This document shows positions 40,210 to 51,320 of a DNA stretch of 64,000 nucleotides, piece by piece. Each line of letters begins with the position of its first letter. Position 1 is the stretch's first letter. Below the pieces are notes generated by a model. It made no database searches. It saw only the letters and a program-made list of their open reading frames with translations, and was not told where the DNA came from. The DNA is from Promethearchaeota archaeon (GTDB lineage: Archaea > Asgardarchaeota > Thorarchaeia > Thorarchaeales > Thorarchaeaceae), in NCBI GenBank assembly GCA_014728035.1, contig WJMJ01000078.1, positions 96,001 to 160,000 on the forward strand. Reading direction: 5' to 3'. Both the position numbers and the translations under genes were made by a program.

Positions 40210-40839
40210 TCAAAGACTACATTCTAAATACCTGAGTGCGGGTAAGAGAATATCAGTCCCTTTTGCCTTAAGAAGAGCTTTGAAACTTTTATACAGTGTT
40301 GGTAGCATGTTTTCAACATACTGATAGAATGACTCTTCAGACCTGCTGAGGGCTCTACGCATATTCTGGACGTGCTCCGAAGCAAGAGCTTTAAGTTGAG
40401 CGTTTCTTGCACCTTCCTGTCGAAGTTTTGCTTCAATTGTTCTAAGCATATCTTCTGCGAGCGTCTTTGATTCCGTTACTACTTTTTCTTTTGATGCTTG
40501 TATTTGTCGATATGAATCAATACTTCTACTCGTTTCTATTCTCTTACCTTCAGATTCATCAAAGATTTGATCTTCGACAACTAGTTTCCGCCAAGATCTC
40601 TTCCCTTGAAAGTCCAAAGGGCTAATATATCCTTTAGAATGCATCTTTCTTAGAAATGCCCTGAATATTTCAGGAGTAATAACCGAATGTGCACCTGCTA
40701 CTATGAGAAATTTGTGAAATAATACTGGTTCAAATTCGATAACGGAGTATCCAAAAGAACGAATTATAGCTCTTTCTATTTCTTGCTCGCTTCTGTCCAT
40801 GACATCGGTCAATACTGCAGGACCCCTAGGCAGTGGCAC
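40210..40839 (-). CDS. Hypothetical protein (possible N-terminal wHTH)
   Basis: 209-aa ORF; LRKMHSKGYI is wHTH-like. Confidence 0.65.
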   Translation of the reverse strand: MPLPRGPAVLTDVMDRSEQEIERAIIRSFGYSVIEFEPVLFHKFLIVAGAHSVITPEIFRAFLRKMHSKGYISPLDFQGKRSWRKLVVEDQIFDESEGKRIETSRSIDSYRQIQASKEKVVTESKTLAEDMLRTIEAKLRQEGARNAQLKALASEHVQNMRRALSRSEESFYQYVENMLPTLYKSFKALLKAKGTDILLPALRYLECSL

Positions 40840-40945: not shown

Positions 40946-42814
40946 TTAGCGAGTTTTAATGAATAGGAGGGCAACAGTAATTCCAGCTACAGCAATTATA
41001 CCAAGCAAAATAAATATGAACTCGATAGGCATCGAAGCTGACCAATTGAAAACATATTCTCCTCTAATTGCTTTGTTATTCTCTACATCGAAAGATATTA
41101 CCCTAATATTGACTTCTGCTCCTGGGTTGGGCATGGTAACAGTATATTGATTGTTATCTAGTGTCATAAGATAAGAATATGTTCGACCATTTAGGTCGTA
41201 TTCTAGGCTTGCATTAAGCACTCCACTAGGGTCGGAAATAGTCACTGAAAAAGTTGCAGACCCTTCGGAAATAGGTTCTGTCGCTGTTGTTGTTAGCATT
41301 CCAATTCTGGGACCAACTTCATCTACGAGTTGAACATTCCGTAATATACGATTACATTTTCCCCAATCCAGAATGTTCTCCAGAAAAACGATATTATCAA
41401 ATTCTGCACTTTTCTCATAGTCGAAATTGCTAAAGAAAGTAGTACCTGTGACGATAAGTCGAAGATTTCCAATCTCTTCAATAGCAGCTAGAATAATCTG
41501 ATTGCCAAATTTACCATCTTGTACATCGTCATAGACGACTGAAATCTCAGGTGAGTTTTGATCAGTTTGATAAGCAGTTTTATCAGCATAAATTATGGGC
41601 ATAGGCGCTGAGTCGTTGATAAAATATAGACTAGATGGCGAAAAGAATGTTAAAGATTCAACATTTTCTGTAAGCCCATTACTATCTTCACTCTGCAGAA
41701 TATTGGTTAAGTCATTATAGAATGGTTGGTAGGTTCCATCCATGTATACATTGTCATCATTAACTCGAATATCAGAACCAAGCGCTTCCAATACACTATT
41801 TGTCCTTGCTATATCAACATAGGTAGAATAGTCACCACGTCCAGTAATAATGAGTGTGTTGTTTCCAGATTGTGCCCATGTTGAAATAGCAGATAATTCA
41901 GATGATGAATATGCCTCCAAAGCACATGTAATAATAAGTAAATCAACTCCAATCAAATCCATTGCAGAGATAGCGGATGTCTGCTTTCTCAATTCAAATC
42001 CATTTCTGAATAATGTTAGATTTAGTGTCGAAAGCTGGTCTTGACCTGCAACATCAATATAGTCATTATTATGAGCATAATCAACAAGTGCAACATGAGT
42101 GATTTCAGTTGAGATATCAGGAGGCTCAAAATCTTGGATTATAGTATAGAATAAGGAAACACATCCATTGATTGCCATGGATAAGCAATCTTCAGTGATG
42201 GATTTTATGGAGGGATTTGTCATTATAGCGGTTGATTCTTCAGATGGGTATGCAGAAACAATTTCATCATAGTATTGATGAGAATATGTTGCACAATCTA
42301 CTACTAGTTGTGAAATATTCTGAATTTCCACCTCGCTTGTTTCTTCAAGGATAAAATCATCAAGATGATTGTTGATATCAGTTTCATAACCACTATGTCC
42401 ATCCCAATAATCCCCCGTATGGACTGGAATGCAGGGATCACTAAAATAGTGAGTCATTACGCCCAATGCAACAAATCCATCAACCCAGTTATCCATAGAA
42501 AAATTCGCAACAGTGTAATCAAAATATGTCTTAGCCGCATCAGGGGCGGTATACTCACCTGTTTCAGGATAATATAGATGATTATCCCAGTCCTGCCATG
42601 CAACATCTGGCAATACACAACCACTGAGCAGTTCTGGGGCATAAAACTCGAAAACATTTCTCCATGTACTGTTAGAGATATCATTCAAAGATTCGGAAAG
42701 GATGAATCTATGAGTATCATGTCCCCAAGCCGCAGCAGGAGTTGGTCCAAGTACGCCAACTCCAATAAACAGGGGCACTGTAAGTAGGATGATGATAATG
42801 GAGGAACGTTTCAT
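40946..42814 (-). CDS. Membrane-anchored Zn-dependent phospholipase C / P1-nuclease fold protein with DUF4350-like domain
   Basis: Signal peptide ending AAA-WGHDTH, LPD, HYFSD...PVH, HSGYE; VDYAHNN domain; C-terminal TM. Confidence 0.8.
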   Translation of the reverse strand: MKRSSIIIILLTVPLFIGVGVLGPTPAAAWGHDTHRFILSESLNDISNSTWRNVFEFYAPELLSGCVLPDVAWQDWDNHLYYPETGEYTAPDAAKTYFDYTVANFSMDNWVDGFVALGVMTHYFSDPCIPVHTGDYWDGHSGYETDINNHLDDFILEETSEVEIQNISQLVVDCATYSHQYYDEIVSAYPSEESTAIMTNPSIKSITEDCLSMAINGCVSLFYTIIQDFEPPDISTEITHVALVDYAHNNDYIDVAGQDQLSTLNLTLFRNGFELRKQTSAISAMDLIGVDLLIITCALEAYSSSELSAISTWAQSGNNTLIITGRGDYSTYVDIARTNSVLEALGSDIRVNDDNVYMDGTYQPFYNDLTNILQSEDSNGLTENVESLTFFSPSSLYFINDSAPMPIIYADKTAYQTDQNSPEISVVYDDVQDGKFGNQIILAAIEEIGNLRLIVTGTTFFSNFDYEKSAEFDNIVFLENILDWGKCNRILRNVQLVDEVGPRIGMLTTTATEPISEGSATFSVTISDPSGVLNASLEYDLNGRTYSYLMTLDNNQYTVTMPNPGAEVNIRVISFDVENNKAIRGEYVFNWSASMPIEFIFILLGIIAVAGITVALLFIKTR

Positions 42815-42866
42815 GTGGTTTCTTATACAGCCAGACAATTAAATAATTTGTTAAAAAGAAGAGATG

Positions 42867-42886
42867 AGGTGCAGAAAACTGCACCT
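42867..42886. terminator. Hairpin between PHP and PLC genes
   Basis: AGGTGCAG-AAAA-CTGCACCT flanked by T tracts. Confidence 0.55.
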
Positions 42887-42894
42887 TTTTCATA

Positions 42895-45297
42895 TTACTT
42901 TTTCATGTGTTTGAGATAAATCACTACAACAACTACTACTGCAACAGCACCTATTCCTACGACAATTAGTAATATAGGAGGTACCGGCAATCCTTGCTGT
43001 ACAGTGTAAGTTGTAGTTAGTGTGTATATTCTGCCCATATAATCCGTTATATCCACAGATATCTCAAGTTGAGCACCAGTAATCAGTCCATCAATTTGGC
43101 CCACAAGATAGTCAGGATTGATTTTAAGATTAACAGATTGTTCAATGCCTCCTCCATCAGTGTACCTTAGAACAGCTTGACGAATCAAATTATAGTCTCT
43201 TCTGCTAGCAGGTACTGAAATAGCGACAGATGTTCCAAACAAATCCACACTTTCTGAGAATTCGATAGCATCAACATATCCCCCTAATCTGAGAAGGACT
43301 GGAGTGAGGTTACCAAAGTCAGTAAAATTATAGATACTAACTACTAATTCAGTATATCCATTTCCGGTTATCTCCGCTGTGCGGGTTACATCGGAACTTG
43401 ATGAAACAGGAATAGTAGTTTCAATAGGGTCTGATGTTATGGTCATATGGCTTTTTCTCAAAACAGAGGTTTCAAGAGAAAGGCTGGAATCCAAGTTGTT
43501 TGTAAACGAAAGAACTAGGTCAAAAGTGGCATCCTCTTCAAACACAAAACTGGATGGTTCTGTGACCTCAAGATTAACTCCCAACGCATCAGAAGATTGT
43601 GCAGTCATACTGAATTGAAGAGAGCGTGAGATACTCATCATGGAATAAGCTTGTTCTGCCCAAGAGAGATATAATCGAGCTAGTCCTAGAGACGCACCAT
43701 TCGATTCCTCTTGTTCGATTGTGCTAGTGGCAGATTCAATACTGGATTCTGCTTCTTCCTCAAGTGCTAACCATCTATCAACCCATACTTTCTTCCCGTA
43801 AATCATCGAATTGATTTTATCAATTATTACAACACGACTGTTTACTACAGCATCAACAATGTCAGCGTCACTTAGAGTACCGTTAGGGCCTGAAGGGGTT
43901 TCAACAAATATGGCATTCATAATTTGGTCCATATCCCATCTGCTATGAAAGTCTGCTGCACCCATGAAAGGCTTAGTAAAGCCATCCTCTCCAGCACCAT
44001 AGAAGAAGCCAGAATTGTCAACTTCTATGAAATCATATCCATAAGTATCATAATCCTCATAGACGACCGCATAAGTTGCTGCAATTGTTGGATGACATAG
44101 ACCAATAATGGCACTTTGACTATGAGCACCATTTACCATTTGTTGTTGACTTGCTGTATACACATTTTCAGTCAATGGAAAAGCAGCAGAATGAATTCCT
44201 CGTGATAGCTCTGCACCCAGAACCACTTTTATGTCAAGACCATTTTCCTGGGCAATCTCTCTAATTTCCTCAGCACCTGTGATACCATCTGTTTCAGTTG
44301 GACTATCATAGGAGTGATCAGTTGGTATAATGAAATCAATAGAATAAATCATTGCCGAGTAGAGTACATCAGCGGGTGCATGTTGACCATCACTATGTGT
44401 AGTATGTTCATGATAAATTCCAGTGAACAATTCATACGACTCGACCTCTGCTGGCGACAAGTCGGGACCACTACCAGCGTAGATAACGTTTCTTTCGGGA
44501 ATAGTGGCTGCTCGTTCAGGATTATTACTGAGCCAATCGATAACATTTACTGAAAACTGATGGTGATCATAGTGCGACTCTAACAGATTTGTTTTCTCAT
44601 AATACATTAGAAATGGGGCAAGTGAACCTACAGCAACAATTCGGCCAGAGCCAGATGTTGAAACTGCAACAATAGAGTCACCTTCATCTTGAATGATAGA
44701 AGTAGCAGAACCAGATACAGAAAGTGTACAACCTGCATGTTGACCCGAGTTAGAATGAATCGATGTCATATTATGAGTAACATGATGATCTTCCAAATCA
44801 GTTGCAGTTCCAGTCCATTTATCTAGTTGGAATAAAATTCCATATTGCTCAGAAATAGGATTGAGATTTTGAGGAGAATATTGCCAAGAGCTACTCTCTT
44901 CCTCAATTCCCACTAATAGCAATCCCCCACCATTGTCTACAAAATCATGAACCGCCGTTACTTCATTCGTATCCAATGCAATTTGTGGAAAGAATAAAAC
45001 AAGTACATCATAAGTTGCAAGAAGAGATGAATCAATTGTTTTATTGAAATTCGTATCGGAACTGTATCCATTTGTTTCCAATAGTGAGCTAAACAAAGAT
45101 GCATTTGCAGGAGTCCATAACGCGCTCCCAGCGTCGGTGTGTGACTCGTCGATTAAAATAGTCGTGCTAACAAAGGTTTGAGATGGTGTTGTTACATCCT
45201 TATAGGACGGATTGAGATTTTGAGAGGGATAAGCTAATGGAGCCAAAATCAGAAAAGAGAAAAAAAATCCAGCTAGGAGTATCTTTTTTGAAATCAT
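42895..45297 (-). CDS. Membrane-anchored DUF4350-like plus PHP phosphoesterase domain protein
   Basis: Signal peptide; IDESH...FVDNGGGLLLVG; HEHTTHSDG, TDH, GAE, CHP, AADFH; C-terminal TM plus KK. Confidence 0.8.
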   Translation of the reverse strand: MISKKILLAGFFFSFLILAPLAYPSQNLNPSYKDVTTPSQTFVSTTILIDESHTDAGSALWTPANASLFSSLLETNGYSSDTNFNKTIDSSLLATYDVLVLFFPQIALDTNEVTAVHDFVDNGGGLLLVGIEEESSSWQYSPQNLNPISEQYGILFQLDKWTGTATDLEDHHVTHNMTSIHSNSGQHAGCTLSVSGSATSIIQDEGDSIVAVSTSGSGRIVAVGSLAPFLMYYEKTNLLESHYDHHQFSVNVIDWLSNNPERAATIPERNVIYAGSGPDLSPAEVESYELFTGIYHEHTTHSDGQHAPADVLYSAMIYSIDFIIPTDHSYDSPTETDGITGAEEIREIAQENGLDIKVVLGAELSRGIHSAAFPLTENVYTASQQQMVNGAHSQSAIIGLCHPTIAATYAVVYEDYDTYGYDFIEVDNSGFFYGAGEDGFTKPFMGAADFHSRWDMDQIMNAIFVETPSGPNGTLSDADIVDAVVNSRVVIIDKINSMIYGKKVWVDRWLALEEEAESSIESATSTIEQEESNGASLGLARLYLSWAEQAYSMMSISRSLQFSMTAQSSDALGVNLEVTEPSSFVFEEDATFDLVLSFTNNLDSSLSLETSVLRKSHMTITSDPIETTIPVSSSSDVTRTAEITGNGYTELVVSIYNFTDFGNLTPVLLRLGGYVDAIEFSESVDLFGTSVAISVPASRRDYNLIRQAVLRYTDGGGIEQSVNLKINPDYLVGQIDGLITGAQLEISVDITDYMGRIYTLTTTYTVQQGLPVPPILLIVVGIGAVAVVVVVVIYLKHMKK

Positions 45298-45386
45298 AAT
45301 TCACAACCTTCTGTAACTAATAGACGGAGAACTATCTCATAAACAGTTGGTTTTGTGAGAAAAAAAAGGGGAAATGAAGAAGTATA

Positions 45387-46427
45387 CTACTTCTTCATAA
45401 TAAATCCAATCATTATTACAATAACCACTACAGCACCAATAATACCAATAATAGGTATCAAATTAAGTGGTGGTACAGGTTCGTATGTTGGAGCTAATTG
45501 CATTCCCCAATCAATGGCCTGTCTAACCAATTTGAATCCATTTAGAGTGACATTGTAGTACTCGCTATTGAACATTGGCTGATAATCGCCATATGGAGAT
45601 GCTCCAGAAACAGCGATGATACCTGCTTGATGAGATCCAGCCATGACTTCAACAGTCATTGCTACAAAGTCACCTGTTGTGTCAACAGTGTGAGCTACTG
45701 GAGGGACATCATCAGGATTAACAATCTTAGCATTTTCGCTGTATTGAGATACTATGTAGACATTTGGTATACTTGTAGTTCGAAGATCAACTGGGCCAGC
45801 CCCTTCTGCGCCACCTGTTGCACCATAGAGACAAGTTGGACCATGAAAGAGTGTAGCATTTACATCAGCAGTAATATTTTCTACAAACTCTGCGTCACTG
45901 TAACCTGTTGCAACTGGACGGTAAGGTGCCTCACAGTTTGAAACTGGATCCTCAACTGAGCATTGTTCTGGATATACATGTGATCCGACAGCAGTCAGAA
46001 TCTTTGACATATTGGCATTTATGTATGCACCAGAAAAGTCAGAATCAGCACCAATCCAAAGGAATTTGTTACCAGGATTGAACCAATCAGAGATTGCTTG
46101 AACCTCTGCATCGGAAAATGTATATTCATCACCATAGATGGATCCAATAATCAATCCTTCAGCACTTGCAAGTATCGTGTCATTGATTCCTCCAAAAGCC
46201 CAAATAACTTCATAGCCTTTAGCTTCAAGCCAGAATTGCAATTCTGCATCTTGACCTGTAAAAATAAAGTCACTGTACTGCCCATGGCTCATATCAAAGA
46301 CAATAGTCCCTGAAGTGGATTGGGCCTGTACATGGGTTGGAGTGAAACCAATTAACACATATGGAGCAAATAATGCCATGATAACAAGTATCGAGGCAAA
46401 TTTGCGTGAATTGTTTCCTACTCTCAT
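45387..46427 (-). CDS. Membrane-anchored stand-alone DUF4350/GIFT-like protein
   Basis: Signal peptide; FDMSHGQ, ISDWF...LWIGADSDF, LFHGP, SGASPYGDYQP; C-terminal TM plus KK. Confidence 0.7.
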   Translation of the reverse strand: MRVGNNSRKFASILVIMALFAPYVLIGFTPTHVQAQSTSGTIVFDMSHGQYSDFIFTGQDAELQFWLEAKGYEVIWAFGGINDTILASAEGLIIGSIYGDEYTFSDAEVQAISDWFNPGNKFLWIGADSDFSGAYINANMSKILTAVGSHVYPEQCSVEDPVSNCEAPYRPVATGYSDAEFVENITADVNATLFHGPTCLYGATGGAEGAGPVDLRTTSIPNVYIVSQYSENAKIVNPDDVPPVAHTVDTTGDFVAMTVEVMAGSHQAGIIAVSGASPYGDYQPMFNSEYYNVTLNGFKLVRQAIDWGMQLAPTYEPVPPLNLIPIIGIIGAVVVIVIMIGFIMKK

Positions 46428-46700
46428 TGTTTCTTTCTCCTCGTTAGTCCTCCGGACATCGAGAGGGATATCTAAACAAAATCCATCCAAGTATTTAGAC
46501 CTTTGGGATAGATTATGTAACGAGTACCTAACGATGATACTAATACAATTATAGTTCCTTATAACACCATCATATAATTCGGAAATGTATCAAGTGCAAG
46601 ACTTGACTTTCCAAAGTATTAATATTTAGTACTGTTTATTTTTTGACCTAGTTAATCTTGATTTGGTTTCACCAATGGAATCTGGTGTGATCTAACAAGA

Positions 46701-48137
46701 GTGGTGAAAAAAATGGCGTCAGAGTTCGAATCTGGACGAGATATGACAAAGATTTTTGCAGCTGTTGCAGTTATTGCAGTGATTGGCATTGCGGGAATTG
46801 CTATTGTGATGTTTTCTACACCTAATCAGGTAGATTACAGCACCTTGACAATTTTGACGCGTCATGACACTGCGATTCATCAAGCATATGAAACTGCATT
46901 TCTTGCTTCTGAACAGGCGCAAGAAGCTGGCATTGAAGACATTGTATGGAAAACACAACAAGCACAATTTTGGGATACAGTCATAGATGCTGGAGGCATA
47001 GATGTTCTTTGGGGAGGCGGACCCACTATATTCGATCAACAGGTCCGTAATGACAATCTGGAGCCCCTTACAAGCGAGAACGTATCGACAATAGTAGAAA
47101 GAATTCCTGATGAGATTGCAGGAGCAAGCATGAAAAGAACCAATGATAATGGAGACGTGGTATGGGTTGCTGCAGCTATATCTTCTTTTGGTTTTACTGT
47201 AAATCATAACTTCCTTGATACATATGGTCTACCGACACCAAACAACTGGACTCATCTAGCTCAACCAATTTGGGGTTCAATTCTACCAACTGCAACCATC
47301 GCGATGGGTAATGCACCTAAAACCACCTCTAATACACGAATCTATGAGATTATAACTCAAGGAATGGGATGGGATGCAGGTTGGCAGACCATGGCTCGAA
47401 TGGTAGGTAGTTCAAACCTCTATCAGGGTTCAGTTGAAACACAAGCTGCCGCAGAAAGTGGAGAAGTAGGGGTTTCAATGTCAATTGACTTTTATGGATA
47501 TTCCACACAAAAACAGAACCCATATTGTGAATATATTCTTCCTGAGAATGAGACCATTGTGAATGGAGACCCAATTGCAATTGTAAAAGACACTCCAAAG
47601 ATGGCACAAGCTGAAGCATTTCTAGACTATGTTCTATCTCCAGAAGGTCAGGCAATCTGGTTCTCTGAAGGGATAAACAGAATGCCAGTCCTAGAGGAGG
47701 CATTTCTAACTGAAACAGGACAAGAAAACACAGACCTCTACAGTCTATTTAATCAAACCTTAGAGAATCAAGGCATTGATTTCAATGACTCTCTATCACT
47801 TGAAATTAATTCAGCATTCACTGCTTATTTTGAAGCTGTCTTTAATGATCCCCATGACGACCTTGTAGATGTTTGGCAAGCTATAGTGGAAGCATACGAT
47901 AACTCTCAGCTTAATGAGAGTATGTTCGAGTATTTTTCCAATAAGATTGGTGACCCAGTCACTATCGAATACGAAGGAGAGAACCGAAAAGTCACCATTG
48001 AGTTCTGTAAAGAGATCAATGACGATATGGCAAGTAGTCCATCATTCTATTCAAGCATGCAAAATCTATGGACAAATGCAGCAGTGTCCCAGTATGATGC
48101 TATACTGACAGAGCTGAATAACTTCCTAACATCATAA
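46701..48137 (+). CDS. ABC transporter substrate-binding protein (FbpA/AfuA-like)
   Basis: N-terminal TM anchor; LTRHD, DVLWGGG, IDFYG, NGDPIA, LSPEGQ, NRMP. Confidence 0.85.
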   Translation: MVKKMASEFESGRDMTKIFAAVAVIAVIGIAGIAIVMFSTPNQVDYSTLTILTRHDTAIHQAYETAFLASEQAQEAGIEDIVWKTQQAQFWDTVIDAGGIDVLWGGGPTIFDQQVRNDNLEPLTSENVSTIVERIPDEIAGASMKRTNDNGDVVWVAAAISSFGFTVNHNFLDTYGLPTPNNWTHLAQPIWGSILPTATIAMGNAPKTTSNTRIYEIITQGMGWDAGWQTMARMVGSSNLYQGSVETQAAAESGEVGVSMSIDFYGYSTQKQNPYCEYILPENETIVNGDPIAIVKDTPKMAQAEAFLDYVLSPEGQAIWFSEGINRMPVLEEAFLTETGQENTDLYSLFNQTLENQGIDFNDSLSLEINSAFTAYFEAVFNDPHDDLVDVWQAIVEAYDNSQLNESMFEYFSNKIGDPVTIEYEGENRKVTIEFCKEINDDMASSPSFYSSMQNLWTNAAVSQYDAILTELNNFLTS

Positions 48138-48152
48138 AAGAACTAATAGGAT

Positions 48153-50171
48153 GTGAACGATGTGGATCAAGTTTCCGAACAAAAACAACTTGCCAATGAG
48201 GAGTTTGAGGAAGTTCCCAATCCACTCGTTGGCATCCTTCTTTCTATTTTTGGAGCTTTTATTGGATTCTTCAAATCCATCGGTCGTGCAATCAAAGGAG
48301 CGGGACGATGGATATTCAACTTCTTCAAAGGAATTATTGCGTTTATTAAAAACCCACTTGAGAGATTAGAGGCAGTTTATGACAAATTACGTCGTGAAAT
48401 CGACTATCTCGTAGGAATTCAACTTGTTATAGTGGTTACCGTTTTTGGATTGTTTCTGGTAGCACCTCTTCTAAGTGTGGTATGGAGTTCATTTTTCAAT
48501 GAATATGGATTCACATTGGAATATTTTGAAAATATCTTTTCAAGTAGATCATTTATTCCTTCCTTTCCTTTGGATTTCGATTTTCTTTATTTTAATGAGA
48601 GTACACAAACATTGGAAATATCTGGCATTGATATGGGAGCAATTCTAAACTCAATATTTGTTGGAATTGCAACAACTATAATATCCGTCTTGTTGGGAAC
48701 ATTCTTCGCATTCCTAGTAGCCAGATATGAATTCCCCGGAAAATCCATTCTTCGTACGTTACTTCTCTTTCCTATGCTTTCTACACCATTTATTGGTGCA
48801 ATTGGAATCAAATATTTCATGGCTGGAGATGGTTATCTCAATCAATTAGCTGGTGCATTCTTTGGCATTTTTGGCCTTGGCTGGACAAAAATTGAATTCA
48901 GTGGACTTGCCGCCATCATTGTTGTTCAAGGCCTATCATTATTCTCATTAGTTTACCTGAATGCTTATTCATCCTTCATGAGTATAGATCCATCCTTGGA
49001 AGAACAAGCTGAAAATCTAGGCGCAACCGGATTTCAGCTATTTCGTTCAGTAACGTTGCCTCTTGCAGTCCCTGGAATACAAGCGGGTGCAATTCTTACA
49101 TTTATTCTAAGCATTGAAGATTTAGGGACACCCATTGTTTTCGCCGAACAAAACCAAGTTCGCAATTTGCTCGCCTTTCAAGTATTTGACAATATTACTG
49201 CAGAAAGTGGAACAATCAGTCCTATTGGTCCTGCAATAGGTGTTATGCTTCTAGTTCTTTCAATGGCTGGATTCTTGGCAATACGAAAGTATGCCTCTTT
49301 GAGAAGCTATACAGCAGGAAGCAAGGGAGGACAATGGAACCCCAGAACCAGAACCATTAGTCCACAAGCAACAATTCTTCTTTATATTATTGTCATTCCT
49401 TTACTATTCTTTGCCCTCATTCCACAGATCAGTGTCATTTGGCTTTCACTAGCTCAATATCGGGGTGAACTCTTTCCACCCATGAGTCTTAATCACTACA
49501 TGGTACTCGGTGATGTAGATATCCAAGGTGCAATTACACGAACTTTGGGTTACGCAGGTATTGCTACGCTATTCTGTGTTATCCTAGGAGTGTTTGCAGC
49601 TTATATAATATCGCGAAAAGATATCCCTGGAAAAACTGCTCTAGACATGTTAGTAACATCACCCATTGCTTTACCAGGAATAGTTATAGCTGCTGGATAT
49701 TTCAATCTCTATTATACAACTCCTATATTTCCAGCCGACTGGCCGATGTTTCTCATAATCATGTCATTTACCGTTAGGAAATTTCCATTTACCGTAAGGG
49801 CTGCGTTTGCAGGACTTCAACAGACCCCAGTAGCTTTGGAGGAGGCGTCTTTGAACATGGGGGCAAGTAAAAATGCAACCTTTGCTCGGATAGTCGTACC
49901 ACTAATTGGGGTGAGTGTGCTAGCAGGTGGACTGCTTTCGTTCATCTATTCGGTTAGTGAGGTTAGTACAGCATTAATACTGGGTGGTGCAAATTACGGT
50001 CAAGCACCGTTTACATATTGGATTAAGGAAGTCTATGAGGGTTTGCCTCCAGATTATGGAGCAGGTCCTGCAGCCGCTCTGGGAGTTATAATGATGCTTA
50101 TGCAAATGGCTGTGATAACTATAACAAATGCAATACTGAAGACACGGGCTTCAGCGATGACAGGAATCTAG
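48153..50171 (+). CDS. ABC permease (FbpB/AfuB-like, two fused TM modules)
   Basis: Two EAA loops: LEEQAENLGA and LEEASLNMGA. Confidence 0.9.
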   Translation: MNDVDQVSEQKQLANEEFEEVPNPLVGILLSIFGAFIGFFKSIGRAIKGAGRWIFNFFKGIIAFIKNPLERLEAVYDKLRREIDYLVGIQLVIVVTVFGLFLVAPLLSVVWSSFFNEYGFTLEYFENIFSSRSFIPSFPLDFDFLYFNESTQTLEISGIDMGAILNSIFVGIATTIISVLLGTFFAFLVARYEFPGKSILRTLLLFPMLSTPFIGAIGIKYFMAGDGYLNQLAGAFFGIFGLGWTKIEFSGLAAIIVVQGLSLFSLVYLNAYSSFMSIDPSLEEQAENLGATGFQLFRSVTLPLAVPGIQAGAILTFILSIEDLGTPIVFAEQNQVRNLLAFQVFDNITAESGTISPIGPAIGVMLLVLSMAGFLAIRKYASLRSYTAGSKGGQWNPRTRTISPQATILLYIIVIPLLFFALIPQISVIWLSLAQYRGELFPPMSLNHYMVLGDVDIQGAITRTLGYAGIATLFCVILGVFAAYIISRKDIPGKTALDMLVTSPIALPGIVIAAGYFNLYYTTPIFPADWPMFLIIMSFTVRKFPFTVRAAFAGLQQTPVALEEASLNMGASKNATFARIVVPLIGVSVLAGGLLSFIYSVSEVSTALILGGANYGQAPFTYWIKEVYEGLPPDYGAGPAAALGVIMMLMQMAVITITNAILKTRASAMTGI

Positions 50172-50174
50172 GAA

Positions 50175-51320
50175 GTGAAAAACATGGTAACAATACACAT
50201 AGAAAAGGTCCGTAAAACATTTGGTGAAGTCGTTGCTACAGATGACGTGAACATGGACCTTCAAGATGGAAAACTATCCACTCTTCTCGGCCCTTCAGGA
50301 TGCGGGAAGACTACACTATTACGACTCATTGCTGGTTTTTATGAACCGGATTATGGGCGCATTTACTTTGACGACCTTGATGTAACAGATATTCCACCAA
50401 ATAAGCGGAATACAGGAATGTGTTTCCAGAACTATGCTCTTTGGCCTCATATGACTGTGTTTGATAACATTGCATATGGACTAAAAATGAAACGTGTTGA
50501 TGGAATGAAATACACTCAGGCTGCAATTAAACGAAGAGTCAAGGATGCATTGGAGCTGGTAAGAATGCAGGGACTTGGCGATCGAACACCTCATCAGCTA
50601 AGTGGAGGTCAACAGCAAAGAGTTGCTCTTGCTAGAGCTCTTGTAATCGAACCAGATGTATTATTGCTTGATGAGCCACTATCAAATCTGGACGCGAAAC
50701 TGAGAAATGAAATGAGAGAAGAAATACTCAGAATTCAAGGTGAATTAGGAATAACTACAGTATACGTTACACACGATCAAGTCGAGGCCTTGAGTATTTC
50801 AGATATGGTTGCAGTAATGGAAAAAGGATATATCCAACAATATGGGCCACCTAGAGAGATTTATGCTAAGCCACAGACACTTTTCGTAGCCGATTTCATT
50901 GGAAAATGTACTTTCTTCGACGGAATAATTCATTCAATTGGCCAAGACTACCTCACCGTTGAATTAACTGACGGGCAGAAAGTTAGCGGTAGAACGCCCA
51001 TTGAAGGATACCCATTTGAAGAAGGCGAATCTGTACGATGTGCTGTACGTCCTGAGGATTTGTTCTTAGAATCAACAGATCCAAAAAACAACGAAATCTC
51101 TGGAGATGTCTTCCAAGTTGTTTACATTGGTAGTAATGTTGAAGTATTCTTCCATGTTGGAGAAACCTCTGCAGTAGCCTTGTTATCACCAGATGTGAAA
51201 GTAAGTGAGGGAGAAAAAATTGAACTCTATGCACCTCGTTCTGATGTGATGATTCTCCCATTGGGTGGTGTTGACGCTCTACGAAAAATACCTGGGCATC
51301 CGTTGTATTCACAAGATTAG
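50175..51320 (+). CDS. ABC ATPase (FbpC/PotA-like with TOBE)
   Basis: GPSGCGKT, FQNYALWPH, LSGGQQQR, LLLDEP, VTHDQ. Confidence 0.95.
   Translation: MKNMVTIHIEKVRKTFGEVVATDDVNMDLQDGKLSTLLGPSGCGKTTLLRLIAGFYEPDYGRIYFDDLDVTDIPPNKRNTGMCFQNYALWPHMTVFDNIAYGLKMKRVDGMKYTQAAIKRRVKDALELVRMQGLGDRTPHQLSGGQQQRVALARALVIEPDVLLLDEPLSNLDAKLRNEMREEILRIQGELGITTVYVTHDQVEALSISDMVAVMEKGYIQQYGPPREIYAKPQTLFVADFIGKCTFFDGIIHSIGQDYLTVELTDGQKVSGRTPIEGYPFEEGESVRCAVRPEDLFLESTDPKNNEISGDVFQVVYIGSNVEVFFHVGETSAVALLSPDVKVSEGEKIELYAPRSDVMILPLGGVDALRKIPGHPLYSQD

Follow-up and report, generated by a model that had tools for sequence, protein, structure and literature searches.

By analogy with two kinds of bacterial system, a surface hydrolase encoded together with its ATP-binding cassette (ABC) importer can be regarded as a familiar principle. 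The mycoplasma operons Mhp379, MAG_5040, and Mpn133 combine a surface nuclease with ABC transporter genes, and the nuclease has been proposed to feed the importer with degradation products (PMC9740415). In the bacterial Ugp/GlpQ-UgpQ and GpdQ systems, a phosphodiesterase is likewise paired with an ABC importer for a phosphomonoester or diester. In this study, we analyzed a locus at positions 40946-51320 of a 64,000-nucleotide stretch (the window; positions 96,001 to 160,000 of the forward strand of contig WJMJ01000078.1, assembly GCA_014728035.1) from a Promethearchaeota archaeon of the Thorarchaeaceae. The close relatives of the window proteins are all labelled Thorarchaeota (Asgard). The locus encodes surface phosphoesterases, a stand-alone protein of the GIFT/DUF4350 type, and an importer dependent on a substrate-binding protein (SBP). 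Its stand-alone GIFT protein is a conserved partner of the importer in two phyla, through changing orientations and genomic backgrounds, and scavenging and uptake of phosphoesters are very probably the task of the module. The locus follows the logic of the mycoplasma operons, in which a membrane-tethered phosphodiesterase is encoded with an ABC importer, but those operons have an SNase-type enzyme, another transporter family, and no GIFT protein, and they are bacterial and host-associated. The Ugp systems differ from it in the SBP family (UgpB), in their soluble periplasmic or cytoplasmic enzymes, and in having no GIFT component. Six genes lie within the locus, P0001-P0003 on the minus strand and P0004-P0006 on the plus strand, at the coordinates originally predicted, as follows.

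40946-42838, minus strand: P0001, 630 codons (likely start ATG 42814), a secreted, C-terminally anchored protein with a Zn-dependent phospholipase C (PLC)-like enzyme domain and a GIFT domain
~42119-42727, minus strand: PLC-like domain of P0001
~41354-42121, minus strand: GIFT domain of P0001
~40949-41326, minus strand: Ig-like domain and transmembrane segment of P0001
42895-45297, minus strand: P0002, 800 codons, a secreted, C-terminally anchored protein with a GIFT domain and a probable PHP phosphoesterase domain
~44503-45180, minus strand: GIFT domain of P0002
~43813-44430, minus strand: PHP domain of P0002
~42898-43620, minus strand: beta-rich domains and transmembrane segment of P0002
45387-46427, minus strand: P0003, 346 amino acids from ATG 46427 (a longer TTG reading extends to 46490), a stand-alone membrane-anchored GIFT-type protein
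46428-46712: divergent spacer, 285 bp, AT-rich, with two conserved BRE/TATA-like blocks
46491-46507: BRE/TATA-like block for the GIFT genes, invariant in nine Thorarchaeota spacers
46611-46627: BRE/TATA-like block for the ABC operon, invariant in the same nine spacers
46701-48137, plus strand: P0004, SBP of the AfuA/P5PA/FbpA group with an N-terminal anchor (the start may be ATG 46713)
48153-50171, plus strand: P0005, importer permease with two fused domains, 672 amino acids
50175-51320, plus strand: P0006, ABC ATPase with a C-terminal TOBE_2 domain

Extracytoplasmic proteins comparable to P0003 have been placed in other contexts. The euryarchaeotal arCOG01314/DUF4350 proteins TON_1832 and PAB1295, described by Makarova et al. 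in 2015, are encoded beside MoxR-type AAA+ ATPase and vWA genes (PMC5898192). They are predicted to form homomeric or heteromeric complexes in a secretion or membrane-remodelling system (PMC5898192). The arCOG01314 proteins and P0003 are alike in having a signal peptide, an extracellular GldG-like flavodoxin-fold domain, and a single C-terminal transmembrane segment. However, the present locus has an SBP-dependent importer and phosphoesterases, and only 6 of 52 P0003 relatives reach DUF4350 even at E 0.01. No MoxR-type AAA+ ATPase or vWA gene was found in the window around the locus or among 50 neighbors scanned at related loci. GldG, of the GldAFG system in Flavobacterium gliding, is another extracytoplasmic GIFT-type protein with a genetic tie to an ABC transporter. 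That transporter is of the ABC-2 type and has no SBP; the present importer belongs to type I, uses an SBP, and has BPD_transp_1 domains, GldF/GldA-like genes are absent here, and the ABC_transp_aux match is far below cut-off. The bacterial AfuABC/P5PA operons, which share the SBP subgroup of P0004, are without a GIFT partner and without surface phosphoesterases. In the published literature that we searched, there was no description of a GIFT partner, of conservation from Asgard archaea to Thermoproteota, of interchangeable enzymes, or of enzyme-GIFT fusions, and the earlier statement that no characterized system has this architecture is fair for that literature.

The coupling of the stand-alone GIFT protein with the importer is evident from their distribution. 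Hits to P0003 and P0004 were counted by family in 301 Asgard genomes, and the phyletic patterns are nearly identical: 57 versus 69 of 76 in family f1, 24 versus 25 of 28 in f5, 15 versus 15 of 19 in f12, 9 versus 9 of 11 in f14, 3 versus 3 in f26, 2 versus 2 in f29, and 0 versus 0 of 68 in f9. The P0004-type SBP is nearly always present as a single copy in these genomes. In Thorarchaeota, the GIFT cluster always adjoins the ABC operon. We dropped this synteny as the sole evidence of coupling because unrelated flanking genes are equally syntenic there. Instead, the unbiased linkage figures come from distant Asgard and Thermoproteota loci. Among 20 loci from distant Asgard families picked solely by their match to P0003, 14 have an SBP (36-51% identity) and a permease within ~7 kb. 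Their neighbors differ (acyl-CoA dehydrogenase, OPT transporter, PGK, and P-type ATPase), and the Thorarchaeota background is not kept. A pattern search with the P0003 family alignment also located the family in Thermoproteota (Geothermarchaeota, Nitrososphaeria, and a Korarchaeia-like metagenome-assembled genome (MAG)). At ~16 Thermoproteota loci, the genes for the GIFT protein, SBP, permease, and ATPase follow one another on one strand with short gaps, and the GIFT gene looks like the first gene of the importer operon. Counting all non-duplicate loci with a GIFT match, an SBP lies within 8 kb in 83 of 111 and within 500 bp in 54 of 111; many of the loci without an SBP within 8 kb are contig ends or extra paralogues. 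Loci L107-L126 were preselected for a GIFT gene and an SBP on the same contig and were used for the accessory-gene catalogue only. The linkage to the ABC operon that had been predicted is conserved well outside Thorarchaeota, in distant Asgard families and in Thermoproteota. The picture of three GIFT proteins facing an importer needs revision: the stand-alone GIFT protein is the constant partner, and the two enzyme fusions are lineage-specific and missing in some Thorarchaeota.

The second recurrent feature of the clusters is their phosphoesterases. Five unrelated phosphoesterase folds (Zn-PLC/P1, PHP, metallophosphoesterase, NPP/alkaline-phosphatase type, and EEP) alternate by lineage, and at least one of them is present in 57 of 111 GIFT loci. 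Hermodarchaeota clusters contain a Metallophos protein, often with a PLC-GIFT fusion, and Heimdallarchaeaceae clusters contain a Sulfatase/Phosphodiest protein of the alkaline-phosphatase superfamily. Families f22 and f14 have Exo_endo_phos proteins with Ig and fn3 domains as well as S1/P1-like proteins. In Geothermarchaeum rappei, a single-strand array consists of two Metallophos genes followed by the GIFT, SBP, permease, and ATPase genes and an S1-P1/Zn_PLPC gene. The cluster Metallophos proteins resemble the Icc/Rv0805/GpdQ phosphodiesterases most closely, and glycerophosphodiesters are substrates of GpdQ-like enzymes. The repeated recruitment of five unrelated folds of one chemistry to the same core is difficult to account for without a common task on phosphoesters. 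The phosphoester theme of the original prediction is thus reinforced by non-orthologous replacement, with Metallophos, NPP/alkaline-phosphatase-type, EEP, and S1/P1-PLC enzymes in other lineages. At three loci from Geothermarchaeota and Nitrososphaeria (L076, L077, and L078:28-4331), the GIFT gene adjoins an S1-P1/PLC-like gene, with a Metallophos gene also present in L078, and no ABC genes were seen in the contig stretches examined; a pairing of GIFT and phosphoesterase without an importer may exist.

In P0001, residues 42-170 match Zn_dep_PLPC (PF00882; E 5.9e-9, 36.5 bits versus a cut-off of 26.8). Among 32 Asgard and Thermoproteota relatives, eight of the nine Zn-ligand positions (W38, D78, H87, H130, D134, H140, H148, and E152) do not vary, and the ninth, H43, hardly does. 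W38 directly follows AAA, a likely signal cleavage site (AAA|W). Looking at these residues, the tri-zinc domain is predicted to be catalytically intact. The AlphaFold2 (AF2) model of the domain (pLDDT 92) is best matched by Bacillus cereus phosphatidylcholine-preferring PLC (PC-PLC; E 8.5e-7, TM-score 0.72), followed by Listeria PLC and the N-domain of clostridial alpha-toxin (E ~1e-6, TM-score 0.65-0.72), whereas S1/P1 nucleases are matched at E 0.05-0.5 only. The W1-H6 spacing in P0001 resembles that of P1 nuclease. One Thorarchaeota MAG carries a 141-codon PLC-GIFT remnant covering residues 1-133 (L002:11129-11554, plus strand) and has no P0002 homolog, as though its accessory enzyme genes were decaying.

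The PHP-type domain of P0002 matches family models only below the curated cut-offs. Residues 295-491 match the NCBIfam CehA/McbA model (E 4.5e-10, 39.5 bits, below the cut-off of 80), with other, weak NCBIfam matches to RNase RNM, HisPPase, and pAp-phosphatase, and no Pfam PHP match was obtained at E<=0.1. The PHP motifs H296/H298 (HxH), D327-H328, E363, H402, and D449/H451 (DxH) are invariant in 7 orthologs, and judging from these motifs the domain is predicted to be catalytically intact. Against the PDB, the profile of the P0002 PHP family gave weak matches to the PolX PHP domain and 3e38 (E 1e-3 to 6e-3) and to RNase AM. Domain matches and invariant motifs thus agree with the predicted arrangement, in which one protein is fused to a Zn-PLC-type domain, one is fused to a PHP domain, and one stands alone.

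These resemblances raise the question of whether the module is a scavenger of nucleic acids or nucleotides, in which surface nucleases and phosphodiesterases yield nucleoside or deoxynucleoside monophosphates (NMPs/dNMPs) for ABC import. The tri-zinc relatives in Thermoproteota and f22 match S1-P1_nuclease as well as Zn_PLPC, the EEP proteins are weakly like exonuclease III, the Metallophos proteins are like cyclic-nucleotide phosphodiesterases, and the P0002 PHP domain weakly matches those of PolX and RNase AM. A kinase/nucleoside deoxyribosyltransferase (NDT)-like gene stands beside the cluster in 5 f22 loci and a RuBisCO-like gene in one Nitrososphaerota cluster, the SBP has aromatic residues (W155 and Y265) at ring-binding positions, and the mycoplasma nuclease-ABC operons provide a precedent (PMC9740415). 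However, the P0001 model is far nearer to PC-PLC and alpha-toxin (E 8.5e-7) than to S1/P1 nucleases (E >=0.05), the neighbors related to nucleotide metabolism are confined to one genus or a single locus, and no AMP phosphorylase or ribose-1,5-bisphosphate (R15P) isomerase was found in the RuBisCO locus L105. We therefore consider nucleotide scavenging rather unlikely as the specific function of the module, and phospholipid headgroups remain the substrate suggested for this genome.

The importer itself probably takes up a phosphorylated ligand. P0004 matches SBP_bac_6 (E 8e-17, 61.9 bits versus a cut-off of 24.6), and its best NCBIfam match, PhnS2, is far below cut-off. Its family profile is closest in the PDB to P5PA (2.6e-13), followed by 8x1a (3e-11), a protein annotated as Fe(III)-binding, AfuA (1e-9), and FbpA/HitA (~5e-9 and weaker). 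P0005 has two BPD_transp_1 domains in one protein, the fused architecture of FbpB, AfuB, ThiP, and PhnU2; among NCBIfam models it matches PhnU2 over residues 161-661 (E 2e-37) and ThiP more weakly. P0006 matches ABC_tran (E 1e-37) and TOBE_2 (E 2e-7), and is PotA/PhnT2/UgpC-like among NCBIfam models, all below equivalog cut-offs. The designation of an AfuA/FbpA-type importer was correct: the SBP belongs to the AfuA/P5PA/FbpA group, and the organophosphate binders P5PA and AfuA are nearest to it. The best sub-threshold NCBIfam models for both P0004 and P0005 are those for 2-aminoethylphosphonate, which is a close analogue of phosphoethanolamine.

The AfuABC/P5PA importers of Actinobacillus and Citrobacter have the same SBP subgroup and a fused two-domain permease (PMC4546632, PMC8427247). 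Both P5PA (S147-G148-T149) and AfuA (S148-G149-T150) hold the phosphate with a Ser-Gly-Thr loop located at the N-terminal end of a helix (PMC8427247). The P5PA loop aligns with T209-S210-N211 of P0004, where T209 and S210 do not vary among 28 SBPs of the two phyla. P0004 may share with these proteins a hydroxyl-rich phosphate loop at the start of a helix and, at matching positions, aromatic or His ring contacts. The other phosphate ligands, T37 and S183, fall outside the stretch aligned with P0004. At the ring-contact positions, P0004 has the conserved W155 and Y265 where P5PA has Y103 and H203, and R54, H55, R213, and R327 are further conserved basic residues. P0004 is only ~20-25% identical to AfuA/P5PA over ~180 aligned residues and differs in its N-terminal anchor and a ~140-aa C-terminal extension. 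Taken together, the alignments suggest that the ligand is probably anionic and phosphorylated, with a ring or amine moiety. Salvage of phosphorylated cofactors (pyridoxal 5'-phosphate (PLP), thiamine phosphates, or NAD- and FAD-derived nucleotides) is one alternative, in which ecto-pyrophosphatases and phosphodiesterases would turn dinucleotide or pyrophosphate cofactors into the form that is transported; the closest solved SBP is the PLP-binding P5PA, and the permease is weakly ThiP-like. Nevertheless, we find it improbable: cofactor processing offers no evident task for a PLC-like enzyme, W and Y in place of Y103 and H203 imply a different specificity, and no cofactor-related gene was seen in the sampled neighborhoods.

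Import of ferric iron or another non-phosphoester solute, with the phosphoesterases and GIFT proteins as neighbors by regulation or history, has to be weighed at the same site. Ferric-binding proteins are among the PDB matches of the SBP, H55 and Y265 could be metal ligands, and the synteny in Thorarchaeota is broad. The Fe3+ ligands of FbpA are His9, Glu57, Tyr195, and Tyr196. In an alignment with HitA (weak, E 7e-4, with the Glu57 region not alignable), the tyrosine pair of FbpA corresponds to F264-Y265, and F264 is near-invariant in the family. P0004 does not appear to match the FbpA iron site, since the first tyrosine (Tyr195) is replaced by this near-invariant Phe. Furthermore, the linkage survives full turnover of background genes and changes of orientation in two phyla, the GIFT gene is in the Thermoproteota importer operon, and five phosphoesterase folds recur in the cluster. 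This explanation is very improbable, and uptake of a phosphorylated ligand is the reading we carry forward.

On the other side of the spacer, P0001, P0002, and P0003 each have an N-terminal hydrophobic segment and a C-terminal transmembrane segment with a basic tail. The density of N-x-S/T sequons is 0.75-1.7 per 100 aa in these proteins versus 0-0.44 in five cytosolic neighbors, a three- to fivefold enrichment. The signal and anchor segments and the sequon enrichment indicate that all three are located at the cell surface. Coordinates, segments, and domain matches agree with the predicted set of three tandem minus-strand, secreted, transmembrane-anchored proteins divergent from an SBP-permease-ATPase operon. 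The TTG start of P0003 is unlikely because the BRE/TATA block at 46491-46507 overlaps the longer reading, and ATG 46427 is taken as real. A shared operator-like element was sought by aligning the divergent spacers of the nine Thorarchaeota, and none was found; only the two BRE/TATA blocks are invariant. On the 3' side of P0001, a 209-aa cytosolic protein is encoded on the same strand (40210-40839, minus strand). It has no Pfam or NCBIfam match, transmembrane segment, or sequon, and its position is kept in nearly all Thorarchaeota loci, including ones without P0001 and P0002. The protein may have a regulatory role or no relation to the module.

The three surface proteins are joined by the GIFT domain. 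The profile comparisons place the motifs VDYAH, IDESH, and FDMSH and the following E..AI..W/F..G..L.I.G, all of them present, in aligned columns. As a defining feature, the hhDxxH motif holds for the three proteins of the locus, but its His is not kept in Thermoproteota relatives. BLASTP gave E 2e-8 for P0001-P0003, 0.002 for P0002-P0003, and 0.09 for P0001-P0002. By hhalign, the P0003 family (52 sequences) matches the P0001 family at 98.8% (E 1.4e-16, 245 columns) and the P0002 family at 97.6% (E 2.6e-12). The direct P0001-P0002 profile match falls on the common C-terminal Ig-like domain and transmembrane segment, not on GIFT, and the homology of their GIFT domains therefore follows by transitivity only. 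From these comparisons, the GIFT domains of the three proteins can be taken to be mutually homologous. In Pfam, P0001 residues 267-492 have sub-threshold matches to OST48_N (E 5e-6), IFT52_GIFT, and DUF4350, and P0002 residues 64-229 to DUF4350, ABC_transp_aux, GIFT, and ThuA; these GIFT-clan matches range from E 5e-6 to 1e-3, all below gathering scores. P0003 has no Pfam match. Its AF2 model (pLDDT 89.9) is matched in Foldseek by human OST48 (6s7t_G, E 4.5e-10), the IFT52 GIFT domain (5fms, E 6e-9), and yeast Wbp1 (7oci_G, E 9e-8), all with a TM-score of ~0.5, and then by ThuA-like and class I glutamine amidotransferase (GATase1) proteins. A structure search of the Atlas returned DUF4350/GIFT clusters. 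The predicted homology and GIFT/DUF4350-like character of the shared domain are borne out by the hhalign matches and by the OST48 and IFT52 GIFT domains being the best PDB matches of the model.

The top rank of OST48 deserves attention. P0003 and OST48 have the same topology, with a signal peptide, a lumenal or extracellular GIFT domain, a C-terminal transmembrane segment, and a short basic tail. However, P0003 has no sequence-level match to OST48, no oligosaccharyltransferase (OST) context, and no OST48 middle domain, and AglB is absent from the locus. The P0003 family profile matched no PDB sequence, including no OST48, Wbp1, or IFT52 chain. As judged from the model, the likeness appears to be at the fold level only, and the OST48-first ranking may be a sampling artifact because the PDB has no GldG or DUF4350 structure. 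A role of the GIFT proteins in the turnover of surface glycans or polyprenyl phosphates, with phosphoesterases processing linked glycans and the importer recovering sugar phosphates, could be drawn from this ranking and from the OST48_N match of the P0001 GIFT domain (E 5e-6). GIFT domains have also been proposed to bind sugars or lipid-linked oligosaccharides (PMC7226087), AfuA binds sugar phosphates (PMC8427247), and in two Thermoproteota loci the gene after that of the ATPase encodes a PF01901 membrane protein. With no AglB/STT3 or glycosyltransferase genes seen in the sampled clusters, and with the doubts about the ranking, glycan turnover is quite improbable. Eme et al. reported in 2023 WBP1/OST48 homologs in Heimdallarchaeia only (PMC10307638). 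It is conceivable, although improbable, that the GIFT protein is an unrecognized fourth importer subunit handling phosphoesters and that this Asgard/TACK family is the stock of the eukaryotic OST48/Wbp1 GIFT domains, perhaps also of IFT52; the ancestral role would then have concerned phosphate-linked (lipid-linked) substrates on the membrane's outer face, and some reported Asgard "WBP1 homologues" would belong here.

In the P0003 family, W115, K121, D128, S129, L144, Y169, R170, and P197 are invariant from Asgard to Thermoproteota at an overall identity of 26-35%, and an invariant polar set, K121, D128, S129, D130, D160, Y169, R170, and H195, is kept. The AF2 model puts the polar residues directly behind beta-strand 122-126 and at the ends of other strands, a place where ligands usually bind in this fold. 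According to the hhalign alignments, the P0001 family has R/G/D and F at the positions of this polar pocket, and the P0002 family has D/N/S. Because the fused copies have lost the pocket (D128, S129, D130, Y169, R170, and H195) kept in P0003, P0003 is probably more than a scaffold, and a reading as a pure assembly module is too simple. Many Thorarchaeota have the stand-alone GIFT gene in a tandemly duplicated form that encodes one fused protein of ~620-640 aa, each half of which is ~50% identical to P0003, as in the following genes.

L003:4726-6618: tandem double-GIFT gene
L005:10028-11926: tandem double-GIFT gene
L007:10031-11944: tandem double-GIFT gene
L008:9920-11884: tandem double-GIFT gene

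Two roles of P0003, as a docking or hand-over subunit and as a ligand-binding or catalytic subunit, are both live. The GIFT fold serves as an oligomerization domain in GH42 enzymes (PMC5898192). A docking role fits because of this precedent, the tandem copies, and the fusion of GIFT to enzymes here versus separate genes elsewhere. On the other hand, the stand-alone protein might have enzyme activity of its own or serve the importer as a specific ligand receptor, for example by trimming or presenting the phosphoester, with the fused GIFT domains as degenerate structural copies. The polar cluster is kept from Asgard to Thermoproteota and changed in the P0001 and P0002 families, the pocket appears to lie at the strand ends where the glutamine-amidotransferase-like fold carries its active site, and the Foldseek matches of P0003 include class I GATase-like hydrolases. 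This alternative is possible, but we doubt it, as the GIFT domains of OST48, IFT52, and GH42 are without known catalysis and the tandem double copies in many Thorarchaeota fit an oligomerizing scaffold equally well. The predicted assembly or hand-over function of the shared domain is thus retained in part: the enzyme fusions and tandem copies fit docking, but the invariant pocket makes assembly alone too simple.

We propose, leaning only slightly toward it, that the locus encodes a system that cuts organic phosphate esters outside the cell and imports the product. The anchored enzymes would cleave phosphodiester-containing material at the cell surface, and the substrate, as modeled here, would be phosphodiester-bearing necromass. 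In this genome, phospholipid headgroups are most likely, given the PLC-like fold, and elsewhere the substrate would perhaps be nucleic acids or cyclic nucleotides. The released phosphomonoester would be captured by the anchored SBP and imported by the fused permease and the ATPase. The stand-alone GIFT protein would act as a fourth, extracytoplasmic subunit, which either docks the enzymes by their GIFT domains beside the transporter, or binds or trims an intermediate in its polar pocket. The link between enzymes and GIFT protein is of the Rosetta-stone type, since GIFT is fused to enzymes here and encoded separately elsewhere. The original prediction of surface release and import is upheld in the phosphoester theme, the linkage, and the type of SBP; the pure assembly reading is not.

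Several observations weigh against this proposal. The Thorarchaeota neighborhood is wholly syntenic, with arcTGT, HflX, polyprenyl synthase, and TldD/PmbA equally kept. Some Thorarchaeota loci (L002, L007, L008, L037, and L066) lack P0001 and P0002, which are therefore dispensable, some GIFT paralogues occur far from any importer (L021, L023, L025, L026, L030, and L031), and at L078 a GIFT gene and phosphoesterases stand without ABC genes. As for the substrate, distant relatives of the P0001 tri-zinc domain score equally for the S1/P1 nuclease and Zn_PLPC Pfam models, and the PHP part of P0002 and the EEP proteins weakly resemble nucleases, leaving the substrate class ambiguous. The ligand assignment of P0004 comes from weak alignments (E 1e-7 to 1e-13) with SBPs that are 20-25% identical, in a group that also contains true ferric-iron binders. 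Finally, the fused GIFT domains of P0001 and P0002 are without the conserved pocket of P0003.

Other genes were observed in the clusters of particular lineages. In Heimdallarchaeaceae, a transglutaminase-core protein of ~535 aa is encoded between the importer and the GIFT gene (L013:11869-13479 and L020:7594-9198), with homologs in L014, L024, L032, L114, L115, and L126, and an NPP/alkaline-phosphatase-type gene lies on the other side of the SBP gene. The permease in the same two loci (L013:14306-17542 and L020:1228-4119, both minus strand) has an N-terminal extension of ~450 aa with LVIVD repeats (beta-propeller), and no ATPase gene adjoins it. In L015:11908-14034 (plus strand) and in f22 frames of 680-820 aa, the SBP has a C-terminal extension with two Big_7 Ig-like domains, and the f22 EEP enzyme has the same type of Ig domain as the SBP extension in its cluster. 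A 347-aa AAA_17 P-loop kinase-like protein with a weak DUF4406 (nucleoside deoxyribosyltransferase-like) match is encoded at the flank of the cluster (L015:7029-8072, plus strand), and copies 82-87% identical are present in L108, L110, L112, and L113, all from one Asgard genus. In a Nitrososphaerota MAG, a RuBisCO large-subunit-like gene (L105:11690-12925, plus strand) lies between the GIFT gene and the importer, together with a GH3 gene and a beta-lactamase-family gene. An archaeal NMP pathway at L105 was dropped, as the candidate AMP phosphorylase and R15P isomerase genes are these GH3 and beta-lactamase-family genes. The PF01901 ("putative O-antigen polymerase") membrane proteins that follow the ATPase gene in Thermoproteota are at L083:15666-16829 and L092:15606-16691.

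If the proposal is true, a dedicated machine for obtaining organic phosphate esters from dead biomass would be present in a large number of uncultured archaea of sediments, among them the nearest relatives of eukaryotes. Its plug-in set of surface enzymes would matter for how Asgard archaea feed and for the cycling of phosphorus and carbon in sediments. The GIFT domain was named in 2004, and what it does in OST48, IFT52, and GldG has, to our knowledge, stayed unclear. The domain would gain a tractable prokaryotic context with a clear genetic partner, and proteins in Asgard genomes that are OST48-like at the fold level need not be glycosylation subunits.

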